64,000 nt of DNA from an uncultured Spirochaetales bacterium. Lineage in GTDB: Bacteria; Spirochaetota; Spirochaetia; SZUA-6. Each line of letters starts with the position of its first letter. The first letter of the stretch is position 1. A program made the translations under genes and the position numbers. Below are positions 46,696 to 64,000 of the stretch, piece by piece. The DNA is taken from positions 581,367-645,366 of the forward strand of contig CAZQTC010000023.1 in assembly GCA_964596425.1 (NCBI GenBank). Reading direction: 5' to 3'. The notes below the pieces were generated by a model. It worked only from the letters and a program-made list of their open reading frames with translations. It had not been told where the DNA came from and did no database searches.

Positions 46696-48051
46696 ATGAA
46701 TTCTAAAACCACATTCAACGACGAAATGATCAACAGGAATTCCAATCTTATAGCAAAGGACTTCAAGTGGAATAGAAACGTTCTTCTATCATTTGAATTC
46801 ATGTGGGGAGTAGGACTTCCCTTCTCAACCTATTGGGTCATTGTGCCGGCATACATGGCAGTTATAGGGGCCCCTAAAACCTTGATTGGGGTTGTGACCT
46901 CACTTTATACTATGCTATCACCCCTCCAGTTTATCGTAGCTCATCATCTAGGAGGTAAACCCAAAAAAAAGTGGTTAACACTGGGCTATTCATCCGCTTA
47001 TATACCCTGGTTTATATATAGCTTGCTTATGCTTCTCTTTCCATCAATGCTTACCGGTACACCCAGAATAATTATCTTTTCCTTTATCATGCTAATACTT
47101 GCAGCCTTACTTACAACAACCGATTCACTGTACGGGTCGCTCATCATAGAGAACACCCCACTAACGCGTCGCGGCTCCTTTTACGGATATCGCCTACTGG
47201 CAGTATCACTGGGGATGGGAATATCTGCATTTCTCGAGGATCTCATTATGAAAAGAATCCCATCTCCCACCAATTATCACCTTTCCTTTCTAATAGGTAC
47301 CATTTTAATCTGCATCTCAAGCTTATTCCCCCTACTAACAAAAGAACACGTACTTCACAAGCCAACTGTAGACACAAAAATACGCCCCATAAGGGATAGA
47401 TTTATCGTAAGGATACGCCTATTACTTCGTCGAGTACTAAAAGAACCTAACTACAAAATAACAATCTTCTTCATTCTGTTGATTTTTGCCTCAAAGGAAC
47501 TGAATCCCTTTGTTGTCACTTTCACTCATGATTCCCTCCACATTACAGGCACACAGGTTTTGGTGTTTTCGCTTTTAAGACTCTACGCTGCAGCCTTCTT
47601 TGGAATTCTTATAGGGAAGATCGGAGACAAAACAGGATATCGGGTTGTGGGAATACTTCTAGGATTGTGTCTAAGCATAGCTTTTGCAATGGTAGCGGTT
47701 GCTACCCAGCTTTCTCCTCCGTCAATTGGTCTGATATACCTAGGTTACAGTTTAAACTCTGGGGTCTCCATACTTACATATATGGTTCTTATCAACCTAT
47801 CAGTTGAGATCCTTCATAACATCGAAACCTCTAACCTCATAGCTATTAGTAACATTATAATACTTCCTGCCATAGCAGTAACTCAACCACTAAGTGGTCT
47901 AATTGTCGATCTTACAGGAAGTTATTTCACTGTGTTTGTAATAGGAGTTCTCCTTTCAGGCATCGGAGCCTTTGGTTTCATATTTCTAGTTAGAGAACCA
48001 AGAAAACGAAAAATGTACAGTATAAGAACTACATATAGAAGACTATCCTAA
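46696..48051 (+). CDS. MFS transporter
   Basis: 451 aa, about 12 TM helices. Confidence 0.8.
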   Translation: MNSKTTFNDEMINRNSNLIAKDFKWNRNVLLSFEFMWGVGLPFSTYWVIVPAYMAVIGAPKTLIGVVTSLYTMLSPLQFIVAHHLGGKPKKKWLTLGYSSAYIPWFIYSLLMLLFPSMLTGTPRIIIFSFIMLILAALLTTTDSLYGSLIIENTPLTRRGSFYGYRLLAVSLGMGISAFLEDLIMKRIPSPTNYHLSFLIGTILICISSLFPLLTKEHVLHKPTVDTKIRPIRDRFIVRIRLLLRRVLKEPNYKITIFFILLIFASKELNPFVVTFTHDSLHITGTQVLVFSLLRLYAAAFFGILIGKIGDKTGYRVVGILLGLCLSIAFAMVAVATQLSPPSIGLIYLGYSLNSGVSILTYMVLINLSVEILHNIETSNLIAISNIIILPAIAVTQPLSGLIVDLTGSYFTVFVIGVLLSGIGAFGFIFLVREPRKRKMYSIRTTYRRLS

Positions 48052-49919: not shown

Positions 49920-50780
49920 CTATCCCTTTAAAGCACCCATTGTTATTCCACTTATAAAGTATTTTTGGAAAAAGAGGAAAATCGCTATCATTGGAACCGC
50001 ACCAAAAGCTGCCCCAGACATCAACCGTCCGTAATCCACAATGAACTCGTTTCTTGCTACTTTAGCAATACCTACCGGCAAGGTTGACATAATTATATCC
50101 TTTGTAATAACAAGTTGCCACATATAATCGTTCCATGTATTTATAAAGTAAAGTATTCCAACTGTTCCAAAGGCAGGGATACTTAGAGGAAGAACAATGC
50201 TAATAAAAATCTTCCACTCTCCGGCGCCATCTATCTTTGCAGAAAGCAACAGATCCTCCGGTATACTCTGCATAAACTGTTTCATAAGAAACAAACCAAA
50301 TGGCCACGCAACCATCGGCAAAAACATTCCTGGGTAGGTATTATACAAGTGGTATTTATTCATAAGGATATACAGAGGTATCATCATAACCTGCTTAGGT
50401 ACCATCATTGCAGTTATTAATACCCAAAAAATTAACTCACGACCTGGAAATTTTTTCTTCCCAAATGCATAACCGGCCATTGAAGCAAAGATCAAAGTCA
50501 AAACCGTAGAAGAACCCGCGACAATAATACTGTTAATAAACCATCGAAGGGCCTTAGTACTGGTAAAAAGTTTCTCGAAGTTATGAAGAGTTAAATGAAC
50601 GGGTAGAAAATTGGGCGGCATCTTAATCGCGAGACTGGAGGGCTCAAAAGCCCCTAAGAACATCCAGTAGAGAGGGAATAGAAAAATAAATGCCAACACA
50701 AAAAGTAATCCAAGAGAGAAATAGAACCATACTTTTTCCACAAGAGTATATTGACGCAGCTCGTTTGTTTGAGTTAACAA
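49920..50780 (-). CDS. Sugar ABC transporter permease
   Basis: 286 aa; 6 TM helices; EAA-like loop (LLSAKIDGAGEWKIFISIVLPL). Confidence 0.85.
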   Translation of the reverse strand: MLTQTNELRQYTLVEKVWFYFSLGLLFVLAFIFLFPLYWMFLGAFEPSSLAIKMPPNFLPVHLTLHNFEKLFTSTKALRWFINSIIVAGSSTVLTLIFASMAGYAFGKKKFPGRELIFWVLITAMMVPKQVMMIPLYILMNKYHLYNTYPGMFLPMVAWPFGLFLMKQFMQSIPEDLLLSAKIDGAGEWKIFISIVLPLSIPAFGTVGILYFINTWNDYMWQLVITKDIIMSTLPVGIAKVARNEFIVDYGRLMSGAAFGAVPMIAIFLFFQKYFISGITMGALKG

Positions 50781-50797
50781 TATTCTCCTCCCTAATC

Positions 50798-51700
50798 TTA
50801 GTAATTTATTTCTTCACCGGCATACAATCTCTGCAGAACAGTCACAACCACAATCAATACAACCAATACCATTCCCATTGCCGAAGCTCTGCCGAATTGA
50901 TTAAACCAAAACGCTGTTTTATATATCTGAAAAACAATTGTCTCAGTTCTATGCGCCGGTCCACCATTAGTAAGAAGTTGCACCACAACCCATACCTGGA
51001 ATACAGCTATCGTTTGTGTCACAAAGAGGAAAAAAGTAGTCGGTTTTAACAGAGGGAAAGTTATCTTCCACTTAATCTCCCTCCTTGAAGCACCATCTAT
51101 CCTTGCAGCTTCATACAATTCTGATGGTATATTCATTATTGAAGCGAGATAAATAATCACAGGAACACCAAAATTAAAGGTAAAAACTACAAACATCAAA
51201 TAATAAATTGTACCCTTAGAAGCCAACCAAATAACAGGCTTAAAACCCAGTAGTTTCACTATATAATTCAGCAATCCAAAAGCCGGATTAAAAATCCACA
51301 ACCAAATGAGGCTCAAGATCACTCCACTTAACACCGTAGGGAGATAAAAAGCTCCTCTGAAAAAAGTTTTAAGAGAGTTATTAAGCGTGGAAATTTTAAG
51401 AGCAGCAAAGAAAGCAAGAAATACTATCGTAGGAACTAAAACAACCACGAAAAGAAAAGTATTTTTCAACGCCAATATAAACACGTTATCCCTGAAAATG
51501 CTCACAAAATTTGCCAGTCCCACCCATTTTGAACTTACCAAATTGGCATGTTTAAAACTTAGGAAAAAAGAAAGAATCAGAGGATAAAGGGTAAACAACA
51601 GAAACATCAATACACTAGGTAAGATAAAAAAATATGCCGCTTTTTCTTTTTTCATCGCTTTATATAATCTTACGATTCTACTCATTAAAACCATCCTCAT
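50798..51700 (-). CDS. Sugar ABC transporter permease
   Basis: 300 aa; EAA-like loop (EAARIDGASRREIKWKITFPL). Confidence 0.85.
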   Translation of the reverse strand: MRMVLMSRIVRLYKAMKKEKAAYFFILPSVLMFLLFTLYPLILSFFLSFKHANLVSSKWVGLANFVSIFRDNVFILALKNTFLFVVVLVPTIVFLAFFAALKISTLNNSLKTFFRGAFYLPTVLSGVILSLIWLWIFNPAFGLLNYIVKLLGFKPVIWLASKGTIYYLMFVVFTFNFGVPVIIYLASIMNIPSELYEAARIDGASRREIKWKITFPLLKPTTFFLFVTQTIAVFQVWVVVQLLTNGGPAHRTETIVFQIYKTAFWFNQFGRASAMGMVLVVLIVVVTVLQRLYAGEEINY

Positions 51701-51787
51701 ATAAGTAAATTATTCCATACCCCGATCATTCACTCTTTCAAATCCACACCTAATTAGTATAATAATGCAGAATAATATACAAAGATT

Positions 51788-51825: not shown

Positions 51826-53181
51826 CTATTTCTTAATCAAAGCCCGCACCTTATTGGCAAATGATTTCATAGCCTCCTCGGGTGTTTTTATCCCACTAAA
51901 CATAGCCTGTTCAGCTGCAGCAAGTTCTACTCTAATCTTACCATAATTAGGATTACTCAGACCAAAATCACCTGCTGGGTATTTGCTAAGCATATTCGTC
52001 ATAGCCATCATTAAAGGATCATCCTTGTACATATTCAAATCAGCAACACTCTTCGTTGCCGGAAACTGACCTGCATTTTTAACAGCCGGGGCATTGTACT
52101 TTGGCTGCATGGCAAACACGATAAAAGAGGCAGCAGCCTTCTGTTTTGCTGAGTCTTTCGTCATTATAACATACCCTGTAGGTCCAATCGCAGATTTCTG
52201 TTTAAAACCCGGTTTCGTAGGCATGTTAACAACAATTACTTTAGGTGGTTTTTTAACAAGCCCATCTTTATAAGCCTTCTGCATCAATGTCCTATAGTAA
52301 GCATTTCCACCCTGCATAAACTCTTTTTCTTGGGTCCACAGCTTCATTATATCGGAACCTGTCATAGACGCTACCCCGGGAACCATAAGCCCCTGTTTAT
52401 TAAGCGAGAGCAAATACTTATAAGCTGCTATTGTATTTGGAGAATCCGCAATTACATTCCCCTTACTATCAAACAAACCACCTCCAAATCCCCAAGTAAA
52501 TTTCCACCAAGTATAGTCACCCTGCTCACTTCCGCAAGCCATACCTAATGGGTATACACCATCGTTACTCCCTGCAGCTTTCATCTTTTTAAGTACAGTC
52601 ACGAATTGATCTGTTGTCCAATCTCCTCCCATCTTGGGAAGCATACTTGTCAAACCATACTTGTCAGTAAGATTACCATTTACAACGAGAGCTATTGACC
52701 ATGCCATGATCGGCATAGCATGCAATTTACCATGTATATAGTACAACCCTCTATAGGTGGGCAAAATATCATTCTTAAGAGAAGCAGGCAACAAATTATC
52801 CAAAGGAACAGCAGCACCCTGGATAAACCAACCGCCAGTTCTACCAAGATAGTCCGCCACCAGCTCCGGTGGATTACCACCAGCTATTGCAACGTTTATC
52901 TTGTCAACTCCACCCTCCCAAGGTACCAACTGGGTTTTAACTTCAATGTTGGGGTGACTCTTCATAAACTCCTTGGCCAAAAATTTTTCCCAATCACCGT
53001 ACTCTTTACTTACACCTTTAAATCCGGGAACATTGATGAAAATAGGGAAATGCCAAAAAGAAATTGTGACCTTCTGTTGTGGTGCTGCTCCCTTTGCTTT
53101 CTCACCTTGCCCACCAGCAAAAGCCATCGATGTTGCAACGATTAATATCATTACAACACCTAAAACTTTAAAAACTCTCAT
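51826..53181 (-). CDS. Sugar ABC transporter substrate-binding protein
   Basis: 451 aa; signal peptide; family-1 extracellular solute-binding protein. Confidence 0.85.
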   Translation of the reverse strand: MRVFKVLGVVMILIVATSMAFAGGQGEKAKGAAPQQKVTISFWHFPIFINVPGFKGVSKEYGDWEKFLAKEFMKSHPNIEVKTQLVPWEGGVDKINVAIAGGNPPELVADYLGRTGGWFIQGAAVPLDNLLPASLKNDILPTYRGLYYIHGKLHAMPIMAWSIALVVNGNLTDKYGLTSMLPKMGGDWTTDQFVTVLKKMKAAGSNDGVYPLGMACGSEQGDYTWWKFTWGFGGGLFDSKGNVIADSPNTIAAYKYLLSLNKQGLMVPGVASMTGSDIMKLWTQEKEFMQGGNAYYRTLMQKAYKDGLVKKPPKVIVVNMPTKPGFKQKSAIGPTGYVIMTKDSAKQKAAASFIVFAMQPKYNAPAVKNAGQFPATKSVADLNMYKDDPLMMAMTNMLSKYPAGDFGLSNPNYGKIRVELAAAEQAMFSGIKTPEEAMKSFANKVRALIKK

Positions 53182-53279: not shown

Positions 53280-54653
53280 TCACGTTAATCTTCCAAAACT
53301 ACTTACAGCCACTGGACCTGTTAAAAAATCCCACACTCTACCTTTAGCCACAGCACTACTTAAGATAGAAAAAGTACTTTCCAGAGCATTTTCATATCTT
53401 TCCAATATCATGTCTCTATTCACATAGTGGGCATAACTTGCATAGAAAGAGGTTCCTGCCAGAAAGCCTTGTCTTAACATCTCCTGGGAAAAGAGTGTAT
53501 TCAGTGCACGTCGTTCTTCCTCTACAGCAGAACCTTCATCGGATGAATTTGAAGAAAGTTCAAAACGAAAATGCATAAGTGCAAAACGACCCTCTATATT
53601 CACCTTAAGCCCATACTTAGAAGAAACAAATTCCCATATATGCTTCACCTCTTTCCCTACTTCCTCCAACTTCCTGGGAAGATCAATCCTCTCCATCTTT
53701 TCAACCGTTGCAAGAGCAGCAGCAGGTCCAACAGCCTCCGTCCAATAGGTACTACTTATAAAACTCTCCTGAGCCTTATCCATAACATTTGCTTTTCCAA
53801 TCACTGCAGCTATAGGGAAACCGTTTCCTAACGCTTTGGCAAAAACAGCTATATCAGGTTCTATCCCCAGTTCAAGATGAACACCACCAATGCTGTGTCG
53901 CCACCCGGATGTTATCTCATCAAAAATCAAAACACACCCACACTTCGTGGCTAGTCTCCGCACCTCTTCTAAAAAATTATCTCTGGGTTCCTGATATCTG
54001 AGGGGCTCCATTACAATAGTTCCAATTTTCTCTCCCTGAGATTCTAAAATATTTCTTAATTCATCTACCCGATTGTAGCCAAAAGGGAAAATTGTGCCTT
54101 TTAAGCTTTTTGGAACCCCATTGGGCAAAAGCCCAGACAACAAATGCCCATCAAGCTTAGAGTTATCAACAAGATTTGCTGCCAGATACCAATCATGCCA
54201 CCCGTGATAGCCACAAAAGGCTATTCCATCTCTACCCGAATAGGCTCGTGCAATTCTAATCGCAACTGTCATGATTTCTCCACCTGTGCGAGCAAATCTA
54301 ACCATCTCGGCCCATGGATGAAACTTGAGTAGGATCTCCGCAAGCTTAACCTCTAAATATGTATTTAGAGAAGACATACTTCCATTTCTCACAATATCTA
54401 TTACAGCCCTATTCACCTCTGGATCAGCGTAACCCAACACACATGTTCCTATTCCCATAGTACTCATATCCATGTATTGATTTCCGTCCAAGTCCCATAT
54501 AGAACACCCAGAGGCCCTTGAATAATATGCAGGCCATTGTTCAGGGACAAATAACTCAGGCCTTTTGCTAAAGAGTTGAGTTCCACCAGGAATTATCTGT
54601 TTAGCCCTTTTATAAAGCGCTTGCGTCTTTACTCTCTCAAAATCTCTTATCAT
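53280..54653 (-). CDS. Class-III (fold type I) PLP-dependent aminotransferase (glutamate-1-semialdehyde aminomutase-like)
   Basis: 457 aa; class-III aminotransferase architecture; lysine region (FAKALGNGFPIAAVIG) consistent with the PLP-Lys site. Confidence 0.85.
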   Translation of the reverse strand: MIRDFERVKTQALYKRAKQIIPGGTQLFSKRPELFVPEQWPAYYSRASGCSIWDLDGNQYMDMSTMGIGTCVLGYADPEVNRAVIDIVRNGSMSSLNTYLEVKLAEILLKFHPWAEMVRFARTGGEIMTVAIRIARAYSGRDGIAFCGYHGWHDWYLAANLVDNSKLDGHLLSGLLPNGVPKSLKGTIFPFGYNRVDELRNILESQGEKIGTIVMEPLRYQEPRDNFLEEVRRLATKCGCVLIFDEITSGWRHSIGGVHLELGIEPDIAVFAKALGNGFPIAAVIGKANVMDKAQESFISSTYWTEAVGPAAALATVEKMERIDLPRKLEEVGKEVKHIWEFVSSKYGLKVNIEGRFALMHFRFELSSNSSDEGSAVEEERRALNTLFSQEMLRQGFLAGTSFYASYAHYVNRDMILERYENALESTFSILSSAVAKGRVWDFLTGPVAVSSFGRLT

Positions 54654-54819: not shown

Positions 54820-55899
54820 GTGGATTCTTATTCAAGGGTCAAAAACACAATCCGAAAACAAGAACCAGACAGGCCCCCCACAGATTTTTCTGCAACCCCA
54901 GAAACTATCAAAAAGCTATTAACTAATCTTAAACTTGAAAATTTAAATCAACTTTTGGATTATTTTGAAATCGATATACGATGGGTTTACCCCAAATTTA
55001 TAGGCCCTAAGGAGCTTTCAGGTGCAGCGGGAGTAACTGCCAAAGGGAAAGATTTCCTCGGTATAGTCTGGAAACCTGTAAAAAATCGATACGCCACCTA
55101 CAATGAAATAGTCTATAGTCCTCTATCCGAAGCCAAAACAGTCAAGGAAATAGAAAACTATAATTGGCCCTCTGTCGATTGGTTCGATTTTTCCCATTTG
55201 AAAGAAATAATAAAACGAATAAACGAGAAAGAACAACACGCAATTGCATATTTCGCCGGAGGAGCCTTTGAAACCCCATGGTATATGCGTGGAATGGAAC
55301 AATTTTTAATCGATCTTGCAACACAACCAGAAATTGCAGAAGCAATAAGCAAAAAATGTGTGGAATTTTATAAGGCAAGAGCCTTAAAAGCATTGGAGCA
55401 AACCAATGGGCAAATAAATATCATCGGCAGTGGAGGAGATATTGGAACACAAAGGGGAATGATGATCTCCCCTGAAATATGGCGAAAACATATAAAGCCC
55501 TATACACGGGTATTAATAGAAACCTTTAAGAAAATGGGCTATATAACCTTCTATCATTCGTGTGGTTCAATTGTTCCTGTTATTGAGGATTTCATTGAAA
55601 TAGGATTAGATATTCTAGATCCTATCCAAACAAGTGCTACGGGGATGTCTCCTACCTTTCTAAAAGAAAAATTCGGAGAGAAACTAACCTTTCACGGTGG
55701 TATAGACGAACAGCAAATACTTCCTTTTTACACCCCAAAAGAGTTAGAAAAAGAAATTGTCCATTTAATAGATACCCTCGGCAAAGGCGGAGGATATATT
55801 CCTTGTGCGGCACATGCCATTCAACCCGATACACCAGTAGAAAATATAATCACAATGTACAAAACAATACTAAATTACAGATATAATTCCAAACAGTAA
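54820..55899 (+). CDS. Uroporphyrinogen-decarboxylase (URO-D)/MtaA-CmuA-family protein
   Basis: 359 aa with URO-D-fold-like sequence throughout; apparent GTG start (stop at 54811 excludes upstream ATG); no corrinoid protein gene nearby. Confidence 0.75.
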   Translation: MDSYSRVKNTIRKQEPDRPPTDFSATPETIKKLLTNLKLENLNQLLDYFEIDIRWVYPKFIGPKELSGAAGVTAKGKDFLGIVWKPVKNRYATYNEIVYSPLSEAKTVKEIENYNWPSVDWFDFSHLKEIIKRINEKEQHAIAYFAGGAFETPWYMRGMEQFLIDLATQPEIAEAISKKCVEFYKARALKALEQTNGQINIIGSGGDIGTQRGMMISPEIWRKHIKPYTRVLIETFKKMGYITFYHSCGSIVPVIEDFIEIGLDILDPIQTSATGMSPTFLKEKFGEKLTFHGGIDEQQILPFYTPKELEKEIVHLIDTLGKGGGYIPCAAHAIQPDTPVENIITMYKTILNYRYNSKQ

Positions 55900-55907
55900 A
55901 ACGGCTA

Positions 55908-56930
55908 CTACCAATCTAATGACGGTTGTGAGGTGATATCGACCCGTTCCTCTTTGCCACTCCGATAGCTCTTCTCTACCGCAGCAGTTATAGCTGTAAT
56001 CATCGCATTATCCATATAATTCAGAGGCCAATTACTCTTTCCCTTCACCGCATTAATAAACAGAGCAATCTCTTCAAAGTATGCATCCTCCAACACCTCC
56101 CTCTGCGTACCACACCGATAAACCTCGCCATGGGTATCATCATCAGTAACTTCCAACAGCCCCTTTAAGATGTCAAACTCAGCGATACCTTTTATTCCGG
56201 CTATCCAGCCCTTACGCATCACCCTTCTACTCCCGATAAGCAGACTAAAACTCCCGGCGAGTCTATCACCACCCTTAACAATGATATTCCAACAGTCCTC
56301 AAAGTTACCGGTAGTCTCCCCTCGCCTTCCTATGTGAGCATACACAGAGGAAAAATCTCTACCGAGAATATCCCATAGATAGGTAAGCTCGAAAGCAAGC
56401 ATATCCCTACCAGCAGAGGTTTCACGTTTACGAGCATAGTATTCTCTCCCTTCGTCAGAATGCCATGCCGGTTCATAAGTGGAGAGAAACATATGCCATG
56501 ATTGTACCTTACCAAGTATCCCAGAGTTAATTATCTCTTTTAATTTCTTTACAATTGGTAAAAAGATCATTGTATTGGAAGGAGCTGCAACCAATTTCTT
56601 TTCAGCAGCATTTTTCATAACAAAATCATAGTTGTAAGTCCAGATACTAGCCTCACAAAAGTGATGTAATCCATTTTCGACCGCAAATCGAACATAGTAA
56701 TCATGTTGATCCGGTGGAGTCGATATAACTAACACTTCAGGCGAAAATTCTTTTATCGCTCTGTCGAAAGTATCAAAAACAGGAATAGAAAACTGTTCCC
56801 TTGCCCTTTTACGCCTGTCCTCTCTCTTATCAAATAGGGCAACATCCAGTTTACCAATTTTTATCAAATCCCTCATCCGCCTAGTTCCCATAGATCCCCC
56901 TCCGATTTGAAGAACCTTCACTCTTTCCAT
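55908..56930 (-). CDS. Gfo/Idh/MocA-family oxidoreductase
   Basis: 340 aa; N-terminal Rossmann region (VLQIGGGSMGTRRMRDL). Confidence 0.75.
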   Translation of the reverse strand: MERVKVLQIGGGSMGTRRMRDLIKIGKLDVALFDKREDRRKRAREQFSIPVFDTFDRAIKEFSPEVLVISTPPDQHDYYVRFAVENGLHHFCEASIWTYNYDFVMKNAAEKKLVAAPSNTMIFLPIVKKLKEIINSGILGKVQSWHMFLSTYEPAWHSDEGREYYARKRETSAGRDMLAFELTYLWDILGRDFSSVYAHIGRRGETTGNFEDCWNIIVKGGDRLAGSFSLLIGSRRVMRKGWIAGIKGIAEFDILKGLLEVTDDDTHGEVYRCGTQREVLEDAYFEEIALFINAVKGKSNWPLNYMDNAMITAITAAVEKSYRSGKEERVDITSQPSLDW

Positions 56931-57069
56931 ACCCCCTTACTTATCAAAATTATCTAAATCAAACATGAAAACCTATCACCACCCAATCCTTAAAATACCA
57001 CAAAAAAGCGCTATTGTCACTAAATTAGATGTTTAATGGGTATTTAGAATAAATACTTACACTTAAACC

Positions 57070-57098
57070 TTGACTAAAAGGTAAAAATGCTTTAATAT
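57070..57098 (+). promoter_or_regulatory. Sigma70-like promoter TTGACT-17 nt-TAATAT for the plus-strand amino-sugar operon
   Basis: TTGACT at 57070-57075, 17-nt spacer, TAATAT at 57093-57098; about 100 nt upstream of the degT-like start. Confidence 0.4.
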
Positions 57099-57131
57099 AC
57101 TAATTTGTGGACGGTTTCCATATTTATCCGT

Positions 57132-57157
57132 TACTTTATACTTTAATTTATACTTTA
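57132..57157 (+). promoter_or_regulatory. Three TACTTTA repeats between the promoter and RBS; possible operator
   Basis: TACTTTA at 57132-57138, 57139-57145 and 57151-57157, between the predicted -10 and the GGAGG RBS (57184-57188). Confidence 0.3.
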
Positions 57158-57194
57158 AATGGTGAGTATCATAAAATAATTTGGAGGTATCTAG

Positions 57195-58523
57195 ATGAGT
57201 TCAAAATTAGCAATTGATGGAGGAGAACCGGTAATTGATCCCTCAACAATAAAACCATGGCCAATAATAGGTGAAAAAGAAAAACAGGCCGTAATGAGGG
57301 TCTTAGAGGGAGATTACCTCTGCGGTGGAGAAGCACCAGAAGTAAAGGCCCTGGAAGATGAATGGAGTAAATACATCGGCAGAAAACATTGTCTTACAAC
57401 GGCAAGCGGTACGGCTGCTTTACACATGGCATTAGCAGCTCTCAATATAGGTCCTGGAGACGAAGTTATAGTTCCAGCTTATACCTTTCTTGCCTCGGCC
57501 TCATGCGTCTTACACGCCAATGCAATTCCTATCTTTGTCGATATCGATAGGAAAACCTACACAATTGATCCTGATAAAATTGAAGAAAAAATAACAGAAA
57601 GAACAAAAGCCATAATTCCTGTGCATCTACATGGATTACCAGCTGATATGGACAAAATTCTCGAAATCGCAAAAAAACACAACCTATACGTAGTAGAAGA
57701 TGCCTGTCAGGCTCACGGCGCCGAGTACAAGGGTAAGAAAGTCGGTAACTTTGGGGAGCTAGCCGCTTTTAGTCTCAACAGCTCAAAAAATCTTTGTGCA
57801 GGAGAAGGTGGCCTTTTAGTAATGGATGACGATACATACTATATGCGAGCAAATATGCTAAGGATGTTTGGTGATGAGATAGATGACGAAACCAAACTAA
57901 GAGTCTACAACGCATCAATCCTGGGATACATGTACAGAAACCAAGAGCTACCGGCAGCTTTTACCAGAGCACAATTGGAACGCCTCGACGAGAACAATGA
58001 GATACGAATAAGGAATTGTAATTATCTAACAGAACATCTAAAGGATATTCCCGGGGTTCACACTCCCTATGTTCCAGATGGATACAAACATGTTTATTGG
58101 ATGTATATCGTAGAGTTTTATCCTGAAGAGGTTGGTATAGATATGAGCCCGCGTGAGTTTAGAATAGGCGTAGAAAAAGCTCTATTCGCAGAGGGTGTCC
58201 AGATTGGTCAATGGCAGACAATGCCAGTTCCGGCTCAGGATCTCTTCCAGACAAAAATGGGATATGCAGGGAGCGGATACCCATGGAATTATACCGAGCA
58301 TGGGAAACAAATAGTATATAGGGGAGAAGATTATCCCAATGCCATGGACCTATGTGACAGGTACACTGCCGTAGTAGGTTTTCAACCACCTAACGGATTG
58401 GATTTGATGGAAAAGTATGTAGAGGCATTTAAGAAAGTATTCTCCAACCTTGATGTAGTAAAAAAGCATTGGCAAGATAATATAGTAGCACACTATAGGG
58501 GTTATCTATTCCGGGCAAAGTAA
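57195..58523 (+). CDS. DegT/DnrJ/EryC1/StrS-family PLP-dependent sugar aminotransferase
   Basis: 442 aa; DegT-family architecture; lysine region (FSLNSSKNLCAGEGG) consistent with the PLP-Lys; GGAGG RBS. Confidence 0.85.
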   Translation: MSSKLAIDGGEPVIDPSTIKPWPIIGEKEKQAVMRVLEGDYLCGGEAPEVKALEDEWSKYIGRKHCLTTASGTAALHMALAALNIGPGDEVIVPAYTFLASASCVLHANAIPIFVDIDRKTYTIDPDKIEEKITERTKAIIPVHLHGLPADMDKILEIAKKHNLYVVEDACQAHGAEYKGKKVGNFGELAAFSLNSSKNLCAGEGGLLVMDDDTYYMRANMLRMFGDEIDDETKLRVYNASILGYMYRNQELPAAFTRAQLERLDENNEIRIRNCNYLTEHLKDIPGVHTPYVPDGYKHVYWMYIVEFYPEEVGIDMSPREFRIGVEKALFAEGVQIGQWQTMPVPAQDLFQTKMGYAGSGYPWNYTEHGKQIVYRGEDYPNAMDLCDRYTAVVGFQPPNGLDLMEKYVEAFKKVFSNLDVVKKHWQDNIVAHYRGYLFRAK

Positions 58524-58542
58524 AAATAAGGAGACTTGAATT

Positions 58543-59568
58543 ATGAAAAGACTATATGCGAGAAAACCATTTGACTTTAAAATAGAGGAGTTTGAACCAA
58601 AAAAACCGGGATTAAATGAGGTACTTGTAAAAGTCCATGCATGTGGAGTTTGCGGAACGGATCTCCACTTTGCAAGGGACTGGGGACCGGACTATGCGCC
58701 GCTGGGGCATGAAATCTCTGCAGAGGTAGTAGAAGTTGGAGAGGGTGACATTCCTTACTCACCTGGAGATAAAGTAATAGTAGAGGACGTAGCCCAGTGT
58801 GGTATATGCGAGGATTGTAAATCCGGTAAACCCTATCTCTGTAGAAACATGTACGATCTTCAGGGACAACCCGGCATGGCAGAGATGATGACAGTGAATT
58901 ACCATCTCCTTGACAAATTTGATGGGATTCCATGGGTAGATGCTACCCTAACAGAACCCATGGCTGTGGCCTACAACACTGTGTTGAATGCCAATATTCC
59001 ATTGGGAGGAAACGTTGTTATCATGGGTCCCGGACCAATAGGTCTTATGTGTGTGAGTCTTGCCAAAATGCGTGGGGCAGGAAAAATTGCACTAATAGGA
59101 ACTACAAAGAAAAAACCAAGAGGGAAGAAGAGGCTTGAGGCTGGAGAAGAACTGGGAGCGGATTATATAATACAATCCCAGGAGGAGGATCCTGTAAAGA
59201 GTGTCAAGGCAATTTTCCCAAAGGGAGCCGATAGTGTAATTGTTACATCACCTCCTAAAACTCTTCCACAGGCAACACAACTGGCCCGTTACGGAGGAAC
59301 TATAACCTATATAGGAATAAACCTTGGGGGACAACAGAGGATAGAACTCGATGTAAACGAACTTATATTTAACAAACATTCTCTAATACCTACATTTGCA
59401 GAACCGGCACAAAATTTTCCTGATACGATAAATATCTTAAGAAACAAGCTCTTCGACGCCTCAAAGATAATAACCACTACCTTTTCGTTCGAAGAGGCAG
59501 AGGAAATATTTAGAAAAGCTGATTCCGGAGAGGAGCCAATAATCAAAGCGGTACTGGTGACTTCATAA
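58543..59568 (+). CDS. Zinc-dependent alcohol dehydrogenase (MDR family, sorbitol/threonine-DH-like)
   Basis: 341 aa; catalytic Zn ligands (C...H...E), structural Zn Cys cluster (CGICEDCKSGKPYLC), GPGPIG NAD motif. Confidence 0.85.
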   Translation: MKRLYARKPFDFKIEEFEPKKPGLNEVLVKVHACGVCGTDLHFARDWGPDYAPLGHEISAEVVEVGEGDIPYSPGDKVIVEDVAQCGICEDCKSGKPYLCRNMYDLQGQPGMAEMMTVNYHLLDKFDGIPWVDATLTEPMAVAYNTVLNANIPLGGNVVIMGPGPIGLMCVSLAKMRGAGKIALIGTTKKKPRGKKRLEAGEELGADYIIQSQEEDPVKSVKAIFPKGADSVIVTSPPKTLPQATQLARYGGTITYIGINLGGQQRIELDVNELIFNKHSLIPTFAEPAQNFPDTINILRNKLFDASKIITTTFSFEEAEEIFRKADSGEEPIIKAVLVTS

Positions 59569-59584
59569 ACTTAAGAAGGGAGTT

Positions 59585-60817
59585 ATGGAAATACTTCTGC
59601 AAAATGGAAGAATCTTTCTCGAGAGTGGGGTTATCGAGAGGGGTTATTTACTCTTAAGGGATGGGATAATAATTTCTGTGGGTCCAATGGATATCACCCC
59701 AAGCTTAAATCCTTCAAGTTTAAATTCATCCCCCAGGGAAACCATCGACCTAAACGGTCTTATTGTTCTCCCCGGGCTAATTGACATTCACACACACGGC
59801 ATACTCAACATAAATATACTCAACTGTAACGAAGCCGATATAGCAAGAATGCTAGGCGAACTTATAAAATACGGAGTTACAGGATTTCTTCCAACAACAA
59901 TGGCATTTCCCCTGGATAGGATAATTAATCAGGTAAAAAATATTAAGAGGGTGAAAGACACACATCCACTTGGATCCATGATACTGGGAGTTCACCTAGA
60001 GGGACCATGGTTATCCATAAAAAAGAGGGGTGCGCATGCCGAAAAACATCTCTTAATTCCCCAAAAGAAAGACATCGAAAGGGTAGTAGAAGAAATAGGT
60101 GATATAGTAAAAACAGTCACCTTCTCTCCAGAGATAGAAAATGCCCCTCTTCTTACAGAGATGCTAGCTCAGAATGGAATAATTCCTGTGATTGGGCATA
60201 CGGCGGCTACCTACAAAGAGACCATGGCAGTAATTGAAAGAGGAGCAAGACATGTCACACATACCTTTGATGCTATGCATGGGTTTGGTGAAAAAGGTAA
60301 TGAACCAGGGGTTATGGAACCGGGAGTAGAAACTGCGGTTCTTATAAATGACTCTGTAAGTATAGAGTTAATAGGGTGTCCCATCCATGTCCCCTTACCA
60401 TTTTTTAAACTTGTAGATAAGATAAAACCTGAAGACAAAAAGATACTTATAACCGATGCAGGAATAGGTACAGGAATGCCCAATGGTACCATCGTAGAGA
60501 TAGAACCGGGAAGAAAGGCTTATGTAGACGGGGGAGTTTTACGCCTCACTGGAGAGAGGGACCCCAAATTAAACGGCGGACTTGCAGGAAGTGCCGTAAC
60601 AATGAATGTTGCCCTGAAACGACTGGTAACACTTGCAAATATTCCCCTTTACAAGGCCATAAGATGGGCATCCAGCAACCCTGCCATTCTATTGGGAATC
60701 AATAACATAATGGGAAGCATACGTCCCGGAAAGAAAGCTAATATAACAATAATCAATGATAATTTTAAAGTAAAGTTTACAATATTAGAGGGCAAAATAG
60801 TTTACAGAGGAGATTAA
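59585..60817 (+). CDS. nagA: N-acetylglucosamine-6-phosphate deacetylase-like amidohydrolase
   Basis: 410 aa; amidohydrolase-1 metal ligands (IDIHTHG...); NagA-like length and organisation. Confidence 0.75.
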   Translation: MEILLQNGRIFLESGVIERGYLLLRDGIIISVGPMDITPSLNPSSLNSSPRETIDLNGLIVLPGLIDIHTHGILNINILNCNEADIARMLGELIKYGVTGFLPTTMAFPLDRIINQVKNIKRVKDTHPLGSMILGVHLEGPWLSIKKRGAHAEKHLLIPQKKDIERVVEEIGDIVKTVTFSPEIENAPLLTEMLAQNGIIPVIGHTAATYKETMAVIERGARHVTHTFDAMHGFGEKGNEPGVMEPGVETAVLINDSVSIELIGCPIHVPLPFFKLVDKIKPEDKKILITDAGIGTGMPNGTIVEIEPGRKAYVDGGVLRLTGERDPKLNGGLAGSAVTMNVALKRLVTLANIPLYKAIRWASSNPAILLGINNIMGSIRPGKKANITIINDNFKVKFTILEGKIVYRGD

Positions 60818-60820
60818 CCT

Positions 60821-62116
60821 ATGAAGGCAGGTGCATCAAAAGTAGAAATAACACCTAAAATCGGAGTGTGGTTGGATGGTATTCCAAGAGATAAACCCTC
60901 AGACAGTATTCTGTCTCCACTCTACGCACGTACTCTCTACATTACGAACGGAATAACAGAAGTTGTAATTGTGGTATGCGATGTAATAGGTTTAGACGAA
61001 AGGGACGTGACAGAGATAAAAAGATCAATAGAAAAACAAATCGGTATCTCTGAGGAAAATATAGTAATAGCATCTACTCACACTCATTCAGGACCCTCCA
61101 CCCTGGGGATTTTGGCTCCCAAAGAAATGGATTATCTTAAGGAACTACCTCCCAAAATCATCCACGCTGTGATAGAGGCAAAAAAATCCGCTGCTGATTG
61201 CAAAATAAAGGTCACCTATGGCTACGAACCCATGATAAGCGAATACAGGAGACTCAAAGACAAAAATGGGAAAATATGGATGAATTGGGAAGAGTACGAC
61301 AAAAATAACATCGTAGGACCGGCAGGACCCTACGATCCAGAAGTGGGAATTATCAGCATAGTGGATAACAGCGATAACACCATAGCACTTCTCTTCAATC
61401 ATACCGGACATCCCAATACACTAACCGGATTTGACTATGCAATTACATCAGATTACCCGGGAGAAGCCTGCAGATTACTGGAAGACAAATTTGGGGGTAC
61501 TGCAATTTTCTTTAACGGTGCCCAAGGAAGTTCCGATATACCAGGATTCAATGATCGAAATCCAGAAGGTATAAAGAAACGGGGTAAAATCCTCTACCAG
61601 GCGGTAGTTGATACTCTGGACGAAAATAAGGAAGAATACATTTTTACAAACAAATTGGGAATACTTAAGGTTAAAGTAAAAATACCGCGACGCGAGATTC
61701 CAAACAGTGAGATAGAGAATGCAAAAGAGATAATTCAAAGAGCCAACCACGGTGAAAAGAGCTTAAGGGATGGAGTTGATGAGGACATATATGCAAAGTG
61801 GCTATTAGATTTACTGGCTGAAAATAAAGAAAGTTATCTACTTCCATTTAGTGGTATCAGAATAGGAGATGCATACATTTTTGCAGAACCAGGAGAACTA
61901 TTCACAGAAATAGGATTACGTATCAAGAAATATTCTCCATTTACCTACACATTCATAATGGGACTTGCAGACGGTTATTTTGGTTACATTCCCACAGCAA
62001 GAGCCATACGGGAGGGTGGGTATGCCACAAGAACAGGCATACATAGCAAACTTGACAAGCATGCGGAAAATTACATTATAGCCACTGCTATCAGACTTGG
62101 GGAGGAACTCATATGA
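60821..62116 (+). CDS. Neutral/alkaline ceramidase-like N-terminal-domain hydrolase (putative N-acyl amidase)
   Basis: 431 aa; ASTHTHSGP motif typical of the neutral-ceramidase domain family; no signal peptide; 4 nt after the nagA-like gene; ATGA overlap with the next gene. Confidence 0.55.
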   Translation: MKAGASKVEITPKIGVWLDGIPRDKPSDSILSPLYARTLYITNGITEVVIVVCDVIGLDERDVTEIKRSIEKQIGISEENIVIASTHTHSGPSTLGILAPKEMDYLKELPPKIIHAVIEAKKSAADCKIKVTYGYEPMISEYRRLKDKNGKIWMNWEEYDKNNIVGPAGPYDPEVGIISIVDNSDNTIALLFNHTGHPNTLTGFDYAITSDYPGEACRLLEDKFGGTAIFFNGAQGSSDIPGFNDRNPEGIKKRGKILYQAVVDTLDENKEEYIFTNKLGILKVKVKIPRREIPNSEIENAKEIIQRANHGEKSLRDGVDEDIYAKWLLDLLAENKESYLLPFSGIRIGDAYIFAEPGELFTEIGLRIKKYSPFTYTFIMGLADGYFGYIPTARAIREGGYATRTGIHSKLDKHAENYIIATAIRLGEELI

Positions 62117-63006
62117 AATTGATTTACTCTGCGACGATAACACCCCTCAAAGATGAAACACATGTGGACCAAGTTTCTCTGGAACGACTGTTAAAATTCA
62201 ACCTAGAAATGGGAATCAAAGGCTTTTTTTTCTTCGGAAGCATGGGTGAATGGGCACTTCTAAATAACAAAATGCGGGAGGAAATCTTGGAGGTCGGAGC
62301 TTCGCTGCTAAAGGGAAAAGCCGAGATAATAGCGGGTATCTCCTCCACAGGTCTAAATGGAATACTGGAAAATATGGAAAAAGCTTCCAAATATGGGGTA
62401 GACTCCTACGCAGTAATGTTTCCCAGTGGTTGGGCAGGACCACAAGAACCGGTAGACTACCTACATCACATAGCAGATGTATCAGACAGGCCCCTATATT
62501 TATATTATCTCCCTTCCTATAACGGAATTTCACTCACCAAGGAAGAGCTACAAAATATCCTAAAACATACCAATATTAAAGGAATAAAAAACTCCTCAGA
62601 CAGCTTAAAAAAGCGAAAAGAACTTCTTAATCTCCGAAAGCAAATTGATTTTCTCCTATTTGAGGGACAGGAGTGGGTGGTAGATGAGTCACTCTTTCTA
62701 GGTTGTGACGGAGCCCTTGTGGGAATGGGATCTTTAGCCGGCAAACTGTTCTCTCAGATTGCCAGAGCTGTAGATGAAGGACAATTCAAAGAAGCTTCCA
62801 GACTCCAAAATATACTTATTGAGATATTTGACGGTATATACGGGAAAAATCTTACAACTGTTTGGATAGGTCAAAAATATGCACTGGAACTACTTGGGTT
62901 ATTTTCCACTCATATAACCCTCGTCCCGTCACAAAAAGAATTGGGAAGAGAAGAAAAAAAACGAATTGAAAATTGTGTAGAGAAGTATAGAGAGTATCTC
63001 ACTTGA
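62113..63006 (+). CDS. DapA/NanA-family class-I aldolase (N-acetylneuraminate lyase/DHDPS-like)
   Basis: 297 aa; DHDPS/NAL-family TIM-barrel-like sequence (GFFFFGSMGEWALL...). Confidence 0.8.
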   Translation: MKLIYSATITPLKDETHVDQVSLERLLKFNLEMGIKGFFFFGSMGEWALLNNKMREEILEVGASLLKGKAEIIAGISSTGLNGILENMEKASKYGVDSYAVMFPSGWAGPQEPVDYLHHIADVSDRPLYLYYLPSYNGISLTKEELQNILKHTNIKGIKNSSDSLKKRKELLNLRKQIDFLLFEGQEWVVDESLFLGCDGALVGMGSLAGKLFSQIARAVDEGQFKEASRLQNILIEIFDGIYGKNLTTVWIGQKYALELLGLFSTHITLVPSQKELGREEKKRIENCVEKYREYLT

Positions 63007-63040
63007 AAGCTTCTATCAATTTCTCTATACTGCCAATATC

Positions 63041-64000
63041 ATGAAGAGTAATATGACAAAAGTAAGGAATCAACAATCACTCAGAGCTCACAATCGAATA
63101 AATATCCTAAATCTCATTCGTGAAAAGGGAAAAATTTCCAGAGTAGATATCTCTAATCAATTCTCAATCGATAAAAAAACCGTATCTAATATCGTTGACT
63201 CGCTCATAAGAGAGTCACTCGTGACATCTGCGGGGTTCAAAGAGTCGGTAGCTGGTCGGCGTCAGGAGCTTCTACAGATAAACGGTTCCCATACCAACTA
63301 CATTGGCATAGATCTTGGGGCGACCCACATTATTGGCATTCTAACAGACCTAAACGCCAAAACTTTAGATAGAGTTTACTACGAAATACGGCCAGGCCTC
63401 TCCGTAGAACTTATTATCAATCAGATGAAAACAATACTCGACAAATTACTACACTCAAAAAATGCAACGGCCCCTATTGAATCCGTCGGTATATGCGTCC
63501 CTGGATTTATCAACCCTAAAGCCGGTATATCAATAATCTCCGAAAACATACCAGGCTGGCAGGATGTGAACCTAAAGGAAATTTTTAAACGCGAAATTAA
63601 CAAACCGATTTATTTGGAAGATTCCTCACGCACCCTTGGATTGGCGGAGAAATGGTTAGGACACGGAAGAAATCAAAAAAATTTCATAGTACTGGATCTT
63701 GGATATGGGATCGGAATGGCCATCTTTATCGATGGCAAACTCTATACCGGATATTCTTACAAATCTGGAGAAATAGGTCATACTATAGTAAAAGTAGATG
63801 GTGAAAAATGTGTATGTGGGAACAGAGGATGTCTAGAAACAGTTGCCTCTGGAAAAGCCATAGCCAAAGAGGCTCTAAGAGCGATCAAAGAAAAAAAATC
63901 AGAGATTCTCTATGGTTTAACACATGGAAAGGCAGAATCGGTAACAGCACAGGACGTTTCCATAGCAGCAAGTATGGGGGATAAATTTTCAATTAATCTA
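63041..64000 (+). CDS. ROK-family transcriptional regulator (NagC/Mlc-like), C-terminus beyond the window
   Basis: Not in the supplied ORF track because it runs off the end. Reads MKSNMTKVRNQQSLRAHNRINILNLIREKGKISRVDI... (wHTH) followed by ROK motifs (GIDLGATH; CVCGNRGCLE). Confidence 0.8.
   Translation, partial: MKSNMTKVRNQQSLRAHNRINILNLIREKGKISRVDISNQFSIDKKTVSNIVDSLIRESLVTSAGFKESVAGRRQELLQINGSHTNYIGIDLGATHIIGILTDLNAKTLDRVYYEIRPGLSVELIINQMKTILDKLLHSKNATAPIESVGICVPGFINPKAGISIISENIPGWQDVNLKEIFKREINKPIYLEDSSRTLGLAEKWLGHGRNQKNFIVLDLGYGIGMAIFIDGKLYTGYSYKSGEIGHTIVKVDGEKCVCGNRGCLETVASGKAIAKEALRAIKEKKSEILYGLTHGKAESVTAQDVSIAASMGDKFSINL

Follow-up and report, generated by a model that had tools for sequence, protein, structure and literature searches.

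A candidate phosphorylation-free catabolic locus for N-acylated amino sugars in an uncultured Spirochaetales bacterium

A 64,000-nucleotide stretch of DNA from an uncultured Spirochaetales bacterium (contig CAZQTC010000023.1, positions 581,367 to 645,366; hereafter the window, with positions counted from its first letter) contains a sugar-catabolic operon that is assembled from known superfamilies in an undescribed combination and that includes two families without a characterised member. An initial annotation had proposed, for positions 54820-64000, a catabolic pathway for a di-N-acylated amino sugar or nonulosonic acid. By analogy with characterised enzyme families and from gene context, we think it somewhat more probable than otherwise that ~37.8-64 kb is one catabolic locus controlled by a ROK regulator, which would serve to take up an N-acylated amino sugar or amino-sugar acid and to break it down without phosphorylation. 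In the literature searched, neither this gene combination nor a pathway for the breakdown of legionaminic acid, pseudaminic acid or bacillosamine is described.

Gene assignments in the window were based on Pfam and NCBIfam profile searches of open reading frames (ORFs) called crudely, stop to stop and greedily; the Pfam scan covered nearly all ORFs of at least 150 aa, with four short ones left out (15374-15859, 16631-17098, 18832-19449 and 21283-21744). All the genes listed in the initial annotation were recovered at their positions (Table 1). Those on the plus strand from 57195 to the window end at 64000, encoding a DegT-family aminotransferase, a Zn-dependent dehydrogenase (Zn-ADH), a NagA-like and a ceramidase-like amidase, a DapA-like lyase and the ROK regulator, form one tight operon with successive spacings of 19, 16, 3, -4 and 46 nt. 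Upstream of it, a minus-strand unit encodes a class-III aminotransferase (AT3), a CUT1 solute-binding protein (SBP), two permeases and an orphan SdhA/NadB-like flavoprotein, and an MFS transporter gene and an Amidohydro_2 gene lie upstream of that unit. The plus-strand operon is as first listed; the functional locus, to judge by an upstream block that recurs with DapA-like and core genes elsewhere, is larger, ~37.8-64 kb. No kinase gene was found at the locus.

In order to assess conservation, one genome per species was scanned, which gave 65 loci with a ceramidase-like gene; all loci compared (L numbers below) lie on metagenome-assembled genome (MAG) or metagenome contigs retrieved via peptide patterns. 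Among named homologues, the nearest to the window proteins come from MAGs of Spirochaetota. The ceramidase-like protein is 82-84% identical in three related genomes, two of which (L067 and L069) carry the same operon from DegT to ROK, while the contig of the third (L068) begins inside DegT and has the rest. DegT, Zn-ADH and ROK are the slowest-evolving members (89-96% identity in close relatives; DegT 95%), and the neighbourhood changes right after ROK in the relatives, which indicates that the cluster ends there. Across the sample, DegT (median identity 59%), Zn-ADH and NagA-like genes lie within 10 kb of the ceramidase-like gene in 42, 41 and 24 loci, and within 5 kb in 39, 39 and 21 of 64, the neighbours within 5 kb being on the same strand in all but one case and DegT always; Zn-ADH adjoins DegT in 39 of the 64. 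Core loci from seven phyla, Planctomycetota (including anammox Brocadiaceae), Chloroflexota, Verrucomicrobiota, Kiritimatiellota, Latescibacterota, Armatimonadota and Spirochaetota, encode a DegT of 57% identity or more. A metagenome scan with the DegT profile, whose patterns were too generic, gave orthologous loci in only ~10 of 80 cases, and those match the core order. Since the arrangement recurs in related and distant genomes, it is far above chance. The expectation that the cluster is conserved as a unit was borne out by this comparison, with the whole operon in close relatives and its core across at least seven phyla, although the conserved set is smaller than first supposed: the ceramidase-like gene, DegT, Zn-ADH and, in part, NagA-like belong to it, whereas DapA-like is accessory (7/64) and ROK membership is limited to the Spirochaetota lineage.

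The DegT-family protein, a pyridoxal 5'-phosphate (PLP) aminotransferase, carries the PLP-lysine motif S-L-N-S-S-K-N-L...G-E-G-G, which is invariant (K198). Its best PDB match is Fic25 (8GYH, E=1e-93) over the full length including the C-terminal extension, the second-best is glutamine--scyllo-inositol transaminase, and 2-deoxy-scyllo-inosose aminotransferases follow; it fails the PseC, LegC, WecE and ArnB equivalogs (204-229 bits, cut-offs 375-631). Fic25 (8GYH-J), its closest solved relative, forms a homodimer of fold type I and serves DADH biosynthesis as a sugar-aminotransferase-like enzyme with a non-nucleotide substrate, in a natural-product pathway that uses an amino-group-carrier protein (PMC11726168); no such carrier or cluster is found at the window locus. 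DegT homologues are currently named perosamine synthetase or dTDP-4-amino-4,6-dideoxygalactose transaminase. The Zn-ADH has ADH_N and ADH_zinc_N domains, with both the catalytic and the structural Zn motifs (C-G-V-C-G-T-D, G-H-E and C-x2-C-x2-C-x7-C), and resembles polyol/ketose reductases; its best NCBIfam match is IolM (scyllo-inosose 3-dehydrogenase; 158 bits, cut-off 450), and it likewise fails the Tdh (L-threonine dehydrogenase) model (134 bits, cut-off 458). The end of its Rossmann beta-2 strand is Gly, not the NAD-type Asp, across the whole family, which hints at NADP(H) use, and the enzyme probably uses NADPH.

The nearest characterised DegT relatives (Fic25, perosamine synthase and BtrS) are all biosynthetic and AT3 resembles the aminoglycoside C-6' aminotransferase, so that a biosynthetic cluster for an amino sugar, an aminocyclitol or a DADH-like building block has to be considered; we regard it as very improbable. 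Neither at the window locus nor among the 25 commonest neighbour families did we find a glycosyltransferase (GT), nucleotidyltransferase, 4,6-dehydratase, cyclase, carrier protein or exporter, and the presence of an SBP-dependent importer, sugar-catabolism-type repressors and two deacylases also stands against it. Pfam families among the 123 nearest neighbour ORFs include GntR+UTRA (14), Cupin_2 (7), Gfo/Idh/MocA (5), Amidohydro_2 (5), URO-D (4) and SBP_bac_1 (4), and the 25 commonest contain no GT, nucleotidyltransferase or nucleoside diphosphate (NDP)-sugar dehydratase, which argues for catabolism and against nucleotide-sugar biosynthesis. The catabolic direction first assigned to the cluster therefore agrees with its CUT1 importer and MFS transporter, with ROK, GntR-UTRA and LacI regulators and with the lack of GT-type common neighbours, and DegT, which fails the nucleotide-sugar equivalogs and is closest to Fic25, does not sit in a biosynthetic nucleotide-sugar setting. 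The nucleotide-sugar routes to diamino sugars (PglDEF for bacillosamine, PseBC for pseudaminic acid, LegBC for legionaminic acid, WbpB/WbpE, GnnA/GnnB) do use the same families, with a DegT enzyme and a dehydrogenase at a keto/amino position, and the window chemistry would be their formal reverse, its direction being presumed degradative. Unlike those routes, the window context has no nucleotide activation, acetyltransferase or GT, its DegT is of the long Fic25-like type and its dehydrogenase is a Zn-dependent medium-chain enzyme; NDP-sugar biosynthesis was rejected on the neighbour-family context, which does not fit.

The NagA-like protein passes the TIGR00221 equivalog (255.4 bits, cut-off 225.65) and fails the E. 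coli-type model PRK11170 (186 bits, cut-off 483), its closest similarity being to N-acetylhexosamine (HexNAc) deacetylases. In the alignment it is identical at E. coli positions E131, H143, H195, H216, H251 and D273, which we take to be metal and catalytic residues. The GREPG motif, whose Arg (E. coli Arg227) is presumably the clamp for the 6-phosphate in the E. coli and B. subtilis structures and is kept in four solved NagAs, reads G-N-E-P-G in the window, beside an insertion of 5-7 residues. Loss of this Arg together with the insertion was seen in all 28 NagA-like proteins examined, that is the window protein and 27 others (23 linked to ceramidase-like genes elsewhere, two in L067/L069 and two in L153/L154).

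The 431-aa ceramidase-like protein carries the motif ASTHTHSGPS, and its AlphaFold (AF2) model (pLDDT 94.8), searched with Foldseek against the PDB, matches neutral ceramidases only (2ZWS, 2ZXC and 4WGK; TM 0.75-0.78, E ~1e-28), so that the prediction of a second amidase unrelated to the first is upheld. Its H87, H89, H197, R143 and R144 are invariant among 30 homologues and E359, E363, Y389 and Y401 are at least 90% conserved; these presumably map to the ligands of the ceramidase Zn site. Although the catalytic-domain fold of the P. aeruginosa (2ZWS) and human (4WGK) neutral ceramidases and the His/His/His/Arg/Tyr/Glu residues expected at the Zn amidase site are common to this protein, the identity is 15-16%, and at 431 aa against ~650-690 it lacks both the C-terminal domain and a signal peptide. 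It covers about half of the 630-690-aa PDB targets (TMt 0.51-0.52), and its N-terminus, MKAGASKVEITPK, read from the sequence, has no signal peptide. The family is large, with 623 representatives (50%-identity clusters) at E<=1e-30. Because these proteins are encoded in sugar operons, the substrate is probably a soluble N-acyl compound and not ceramide; degradation of membrane ceramide was rejected in view of the predicted cytoplasmic location, the sugar-operon setting and the absent C-terminal domain.

The DapA-like protein retains the Schiff-base Lys and the Tyr of its superfamily (in the alignment with 1HL2, G-I-K-N-S-S falls at K165 and Y-L-Y-Y-L-P at Y137), and E. coli NanA gives its best PDB matches, yet it fails the NanA models PRK04147 (112 bits against 281) and TIGR00683 (103 bits against 382) as well as the dapA equivalog TIGR00674 (132 bits, cut-off 206). 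At NanA D191, E192, S208 and T48 (GSTGE), presumably residues that bind sialic acid in the E. coli enzyme, it has E, W, G and M. The position of Arg138 of dihydrodipicolinate synthase (DHDPS; Y-N-x-P-x-R) is a Tyr (Y-Y-L-P-S-Y). These lost residues and the scores below both cut-offs argue that it is neither a genuine DHDPS, a candidate we rejected and which would have spoken against the initial annotation, nor a canonical N-acetylneuraminic acid (Neu5Ac) lyase.

This bears on a further alternative, in which NagA, NanA and ROK are canonical parts of an ordinary nag/nan locus and the other genes are unrelated bystanders. Canonical sialic-acid and N-acetylglucosamine (GlcNAc) catabolism proceeds through NanA, NanK and NanE (or NanE-II and RokA) with NagA and NagB, and through NanL-NanE-II-RokA in the Bacteroides variant (PMC10017367). 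A NanA-family lyase, a NagA-family deacetylase, a ROK/GntR repressor and a dedicated importer are also present at the window locus, but the kinase, epimerase and deaminase of the canonical systems (PMC10017367) are not, and the amino group, removed by NagB in those systems, would apparently be lost by transamination and ketoreduction. The TIGR00221 score of the NagA-like protein, the NanA matches of the DapA-like protein and the resemblance of ROK to NagC/Mlc speak for such a locus. We nevertheless judge it highly improbable, since, as the initial annotation had noted, NanE, NanK and NagB are missing, with no NanE, NagB or HTH-less ROK kinase among the scanned window ORFs; moreover, the clamp Arg of NagA and the sugar-binding residues of NanA are lost, and the other genes, mere bystanders on this reading, show translational coupling and are conserved together in different phyla.

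The operon is linked to the upstream part of the locus by L153, L154 and L155, which encode orthologues of the DapA-like protein (58%, 50% and 45% identity). L153 and L154 contain GntR-UTRA, NagA-like, ceramidase-like and DapA-like genes, two small ORFs, an FGGY kinase, two short-chain dehydrogenases (SDRs), a short Gfo-like gene, an aldo/keto reductase (AKR), a class-III aminotransferase and a transporter, and L154 an HpcH aldolase as well, while DegT and Zn-ADH are absent from both. The window block 37838-42470 on the minus strand is orthologous to the genes around DapA-like in these two loci (41-69% identity): small protein B is 66-69% identical to the small ORFs there (47% in L155), Gfo2 53-56%, SDR2 41-42% to the flanking SDRs and the AKR 46% to that of L153. 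The same genes recur beside the core in other phyla, with Gfo2 58-60% identical in L002, L004, L006 and L038, SDR1 orthologues (50-54%) beside the core or DapA-like in nine loci and in L153 and L154, and AKRs of 38-40% identity in L033, L041 and L046; near the ceramidase-like core, Gfo2 is found in four loci, HpcH in seven and DapA-like in seven. L046 is a single-strand operon in the order GntR, ceramidase-like, DegT, Zn-ADH, SDR1, AKR, DapA-like and small protein A, and L022 is another operon on a single strand. The best NCBIfam matches of SDR1, both below cut-off, are gluconate 5-dehydrogenase and KduD. In L155, DapA-like and the small pair sit with a BNR_2 protein (35 bits against a cut-off of 31.4), an SSF transporter and a GDSL esterase, and this sialidase-like context speaks for the DapA-like clade having a role as nonulosonic-acid lyase.

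Homologues of small protein B occur in nine of the 65 ceramidase-like loci, and ORFs of the small protein A type (cluster 15) adjoin those of the B type (cluster 18) in ~9-10 of 65. Small protein A has a single, non-significant Pfam match (ATC_hydrolase, E=0.17), and for small protein B, modelled by AF2 from its sequence alone (pLDDT 63), there was no fold match at E<0.001. Both are Cys-rich, and the pair, found in Spirochaetota, Kiritimatiellota, Latescibacterota, Chloroflexota, Armatimonadota, Brocadiaceae and L155, usually lies directly after the DapA-like gene (the order differs in L154).

Orthology to the surroundings of DapA-like in L153 and L154 extends beyond the 37838-42470 genes to the importer and AT3, which is our evidence for a single system: the two CUT1 permeases are 69-70% identical to those of L154, the SBP 59% (84-85% in L067/L069) and AT3 58%. 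A PDB search with the SBP returned only uncharacterised or maltose-type binders of low similarity and was uninformative on the ligand. The MFS transporter is kept in L067, and Gfo1, whose best NCBIfam match is IolG, in L067 and L069 (61-70% identity). We read the locus, from ~37.8 to 64 kb, as three separable modules that appear to have been joined in the window lineage, of which the first consists of the two amidases, the second of DegT and Zn-ADH with ROK, and the third of DapA-like, the two small proteins and the oxidoreductases, together with AT3 and the ABC importer.

The ROK protein combines HTH_24/MarR and ROK domains, with NagC and Mlc as best NCBIfam matches below their cut-offs; it is 89-92% identical in L067/L069, where it has 406 aa, and in L034 and L070, where its gene is oriented divergently to DegT, the identity is 56-57%. 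Upstream of DegT a block of ~75 bp is near-invariant between the window and its relatives L067 and L069, although the spacer around it has diverged, and it contains TTGACT-17-TAATAT followed by TTTCCATATT. This 10-mer is also in a conserved block of the AT3/URO-D spacer and has only three exact copies in the window, two of which lie in the locus's two intergenic regions between divergent genes; with at most one mismatch there are 21 matches where 12.6 would be expected, a count attained by 5 of 100 shuffles. Such a distribution would weakly support one ROK regulon. Among k-mers common to the intergenic regions there were otherwise only short AT-rich matches, the 10-mer being suggestive but weak, and a consensus promoter/terminator scan of 45-64 kb gave counts not above those of shuffles, so that of its candidates only the block conserved upstream of DegT was retained. 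Between the SBP and first permease genes, a GC-rich hairpin of 10 pairs (8 G-C) followed by a T-rich tract lies at 51787-51812 on the minus strand, and this gap is the usual place of a partial terminator in ABC operons.

The order of steps that we propose draws further on the class-III aminotransferase, whose PDB neighbours include glutamate-1-semialdehyde (GSA) aminomutases, D-phenylglycine aminotransferase and the aminoglycoside C-6' aminotransferase. AT3 and the Amidohydro_2 protein are separate in the window and fused in one protein of ~800 aa in L002 (15848-18373), L004, L006, L036 and L153 (18003 to the contig end), that is in Brocadiaceae and in one MAG each of Chloroflexi and Spirochaetes (~50% identity of AT3 to the copies in Brocadiaceae), and such fusion argues for consecutive catalytic steps. 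Non-phosphorylative routes for L-fucose, L-rhamnose and D-xylose (Dahms/Weimberg type) likewise have a sugar 1-dehydrogenase (Gfo/SDR), an Amidohydro_2-type lactonase, an AKR and, for 2-keto-3-deoxy acids, an aldolase of the DHDPS or HpcH family, and no kinase; unlike them, the window locus has no enolase-superfamily or IlvD-type dehydratase and has an aminotransferase instead. An aminotransferase that is fused or linked to the lactonase, in the place of the dehydratase, implies a 2-amino-aldonate intermediate. In Anaerolineae operons (L005, L010 and L013; cluster 44, e.g. L010:15754-16923), a D-serine-dehydratase-like fold-type III PLP enzyme with Ala_racemase_N and D-ser_dehydrat domains follows the ABC transporter; a class-III aminotransferase was not detected within 10 kb in these operons, and the enzyme may be an alternative deamination of a 2-amino-3-hydroxy acid.

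In the proposed route, the substrate would enter through the CUT1 ABC system and the MFS transporter, and its N-acyl groups would be removed by two unrelated cytoplasmic metallo-amidases, the clamp-less NagA paralogue and the short ceramidase-like Zn amidase. DegT and Zn-ADH would then swap a carbon-bound NH2 for OH, from amine to ketone to alcohol. An oxidative, non-phosphorylative branch would follow, in which a Gfo/Idh/MocA enzyme or SDR oxidises the sugar at C1, the Amidohydro_2 protein serves as lactonase and the 2-amino-aldonate so formed is the substrate of AT3, before the DapA-like Schiff-base lyase carries out aldol cleavage to pyruvate and the AKR and SDRs handle aldehyde or keto products. 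Alternatively, the route could begin with DapA-like, which would then cleave a nonulosonic acid as a lyase. As a worked example in which each enzyme is used once, 2,4-diacetamido-2,4,6-trideoxyhexose would undergo N4-deacetylation, C4-transamination and C4-reduction to a 6-deoxy-HexNAc. This would be N2-deacetylated and oxidised at C1, its lactone opened and its 2-amino group removed, to give 2-keto-3,6-dideoxy-hexonate, and aldol cleavage would finally yield pyruvate and lactaldehyde, the latter passing to the AKR. A 6-deoxy sugar cannot carry a 6-phosphate, and the lost Arg of the NagA-like protein is matched by such a substrate; an initial lyase step would extend the scheme to legionaminic- and pseudaminic-type acids. 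By this analogy, di-N-acylated 6-deoxy amino sugars of the bacillosamine type or 5,7-diacylamido nonulosonic acids of the legionaminic/pseudaminic type are plausible as the best-fitting substrates, and the proposal of the initial annotation is still our best specific guess. It is possible, but we hold it only tentatively, that the locus encodes the first catabolic route for bacterial cell-surface 5,7-diacylamido nonulosonic acids and/or the 2,4-diacetamido-2,4,6-trideoxyhexoses derived from them, wholly without phosphorylation, which would run from the lyase through the two N-deacylases, transamination and ketoreduction, and oxidation to a 2-amino-aldonate to a second C-C cleavage giving pyruvate and lactaldehyde.

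A rival substrate would be a mono-N-acetyl hexosamine or Neu5Ac, from which the lyase frees N-acetylmannosamine (or GlcNAc is imported) and an amidase the amine; Zn-ADH would reduce the aldehyde to a 2-amino-alditol and DegT transaminate the open-chain C2 amine to a ketose, e.g. fructose, the second amidase being redundant or broadening the specificity. This would suit Fic25, which in DADH chemistry works on an open-chain ketone between CH2OH and CHOH, and the polyol/ketose-reductase-like Zn-ADH without the NAD-type Asp; the HexNAc-deacetylase affinity of the NagA-like protein, the sialidase-like context of L155 and the DegT-ZnADH pair of L071, beside SIS/PfkB/GatZ-like ketose-phosphate genes, also fit. 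However, two different amidases are co-conserved, the Neu5Ac-binding residues of NanA are not kept in DapA-like, there is no fructokinase at the locus, and many extra oxidoreductases and a second aminotransferase would be left unexplained, and we consider this substrate unlikely.

Another option is the catabolism of an N-acylated aminocyclitol or amino-polyol, e.g. an inosamine derivative, with DegT as an inosose/inosamine transaminase and Zn-ADH and Gfo as inosose/inositol dehydrogenases, which has the IolM and IolG matches of Zn-ADH and Gfo1 and the inositol- and inosose-type PDB matches of DegT in its favour. In addition, the combination of DegT, Zn-ADH, class-III aminotransferase and flavoprotein mirrors the enzymology of the 2-deoxystreptamine type (DegT-type BtrS/NeoB, the Zn-ADH NeoA, a class-III 6'-aminotransferase, a flavoprotein dehydrogenase and an N-deacetylase), where one DegT and one Zn-ADH alternate at amino/keto positions. 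The window locus differs from those clusters in having an import and repressor setting and no 2-deoxy-scyllo-inosose synthase, GT or resistance gene, and its deacetylases are of NagA-like and ceramidase-like fold, whereas aminoglycoside systems use LmbE. As all these matches are far below the family cut-offs, IolE/IolD/IolB-type genes are missing from the locus, NagA-like together with GntR-UTRA/ROK regulators suggests hexosamine-type ligands, and known cyclitol routes offer no place for the DapA-like lyase and the SDRs of sugar-acid type, we find this option quite unlikely.

Several points weigh against the N-acylated amino-sugar route that we prefer. Each of its steps is assigned by analogy, from family membership and gene context, and the URO-D protein, the flavoprotein, the sulfatases and the small pair have no explained role in it. 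The clamp function is that presumed for Arg227 of E. coli NagA, and the NagA-like protein, whose score is above the NagA equivalog cut-off, may yet act on a phosphorylated substrate. The locus sample is biased, being made of MAG contigs fetched by peptide patterns, and most copies of DapA-like, linked in those seven loci only, are 26-30% identical to that of the window. The DegT-ZnADH pair, at 81-82% identity, occurs without any amidase in L070 and L071, as the amidases and DapA-like do without DegT-ZnADH in L153 and L154, and modules that occur apart may serve several substrates. SBPs also differ between contexts, that of the window being unrelated to those of L070 and L071 (at most 23% identity). 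In L070 (8611-20034) the pair lies beside ROK and URO-D genes, an ABC system and five genes of an FAD/Fe-S set that resembles opine/sarcosine oxidases, and in L071 (10001-21137) beside SIS, PfkB and GatZ/KbaZ-like genes; it may process a common intermediate from differently N-substituted compounds.

Table 1. Positions of the locus features in the window and the basis of each assignment.
Feature	Position	Strand	Basis
Small protein B, 162 aa, no known family, half of a pair	37838..38326	-	no Pfam/NCBIfam match
Small protein A, 145 aa, other half of the pair, no known family	38328..38765	-	ORF call
Gfo2, second Gfo/Idh/MocA-like oxidoreductase	38843..39793	-	Pfam PF01408, 38.5 bits
SDR1, sugar-acid-type short-chain dehydrogenase	39790..40575	-	Pfam adh_short_C2
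Aldo/keto reductase (AKR)	40562..41575	-	Pfam PF00248
SDR2, short-chain dehydrogenase	41655..42470	-	Pfam
Sulfatase with SGSH_C domain and CxPxR motif; membership of the system uncertain	42698..44392	+	Pfam; NCBIfam arylsulfatase-like
Second sulfatase, two overlapping ORFs (44414-44902, 44728-45558)	44414..45558	+	sulfatase profile
Amidohydro_2 protein, candidate sugar lactonase	45569..46558	-	Pfam PF04909
MFS transporter	46696..48051	+	Pfam PF07690
Orphan SdhA/FrdA/NadB-like flavoprotein, accessory	48078..49817	-	Pfam/NCBIfam, all below cut-off
Two CUT1 ABC permeases	49920..51700	-	Pfam BPD_transp_1
CUT1 solute-binding protein (SBP)	51826..53181	-	Pfam SBP_bac_1
Class-III (GSA-aminomutase-like) aminotransferase (AT3)	53280..54653	-	Pfam, NCBIfam
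URO-D/MtaA-family protein	54820..55899	+	Pfam PF01208; NCBIfam MtaA/CmuA subfamily far below cut-off
Gfo1, Gfo/Idh/MocA oxidoreductase, divergent from the main operon	55908..56930	-	Pfam
Conserved putative promoter/operator block upstream of DegT	57060..57125	+	conservation in L067, L069
DegT-family PLP aminotransferase, long Fic25-like subfamily	57195..58523	+	Pfam PF01041, 319 bits
Zn-dependent medium-chain dehydrogenase (Zn-ADH)	58543..59568	+	Pfam
NagA-like amidohydrolase without the phosphate-clamp Arg	59585..60817	+	TIGR00221, 255 bits
Short cytoplasmic neutral-ceramidase-like Zn amidase (predicted)	60821..62116	+	PF04734, 37.9 bits against cut-off 32.1
DHDPS/NanA-family class I (Schiff-base) lyase (predicted), DapA-like	62113..63006	+	Pfam
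ROK regulator, N-terminal winged helix	63041/63053 to 64000, cut by window end	+	Pfam ROK and HTH_24

Of the accessory genes, the URO-D family recurs in core loci (cluster 20 in nine loci; also L038, L066 and L070), and both the URO-D gene and the flavoprotein gene are absent in L067. The URO-D-like proteins of the window (54820-55899) and L005 (4915-6024) carry H-x-C (HSCG and HVCG) and a later Cys, which we take to resemble the Zn motif of MtaA-type methyltransferases. A PDB sequence search with the window protein found no relative, and no corrinoid protein gene was found near the system-linked URO-D-like genes. Sulfatase matches lie near the core in only three other loci. The two ORFs of the second sulfatase carry the N- and C-terminal parts of the profile with the middle part missing, which would reflect either a frameshift or pseudogene, or an assembly error. 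Elsewhere, a 337-aa family without a Pfam match (L037:14005-15015; its cluster also in L012, L017, L020, L044, L045 and L048) is encoded directly after Zn-ADH or before the ceramidase-like gene in Anaerolineales and others.

The remainder of the window consists of housekeeping genes (PGK, GAPDH, PhoH-YbeY-CorC, UvrA, Rnf/Nqr and LytB) and an alpha-glucan utilisation locus at 23295-37616 on the minus strand, with a LacI regulator, a GH13-like protein, two GH57 proteins, a CUT1 ABC system and a DUF3417-type glucan phosphorylase; one of the GH57 proteins has 1076 aa and a glucodextranase-like C-terminal module. Beside uvrA lies an ORF of 1113 aa (9231-12572, minus strand) without a Pfam match at E<=0.001, and an Rfam scan of the whole window at the gathering threshold found no RNA element.

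Taken together, whatever the substrate, three elements would be new, namely a phosphate-independent NagA clade, a family of cytoplasmic ceramidase-like amidases in sugar operons, and a pair of a Fic25-like DegT and a Zn-ADH that would exchange NH2 for OH on a free sugar. The genes of this system are all mis-annotated at present, the DegT homologues being one example, and the gene set is widespread in polymer-degrading uncultured phyla. Surface glycans of bacteria and archaea, and biofilm matrices too, are rich in non-sialic nonulosonic acids and di-N-acetylated deoxy amino sugars and, if the tentative assignment to these compounds is true, it would give first functions to the short cytoplasmic ceramidase-like amidases, the clamp-less NagA clade and the small-protein pair.

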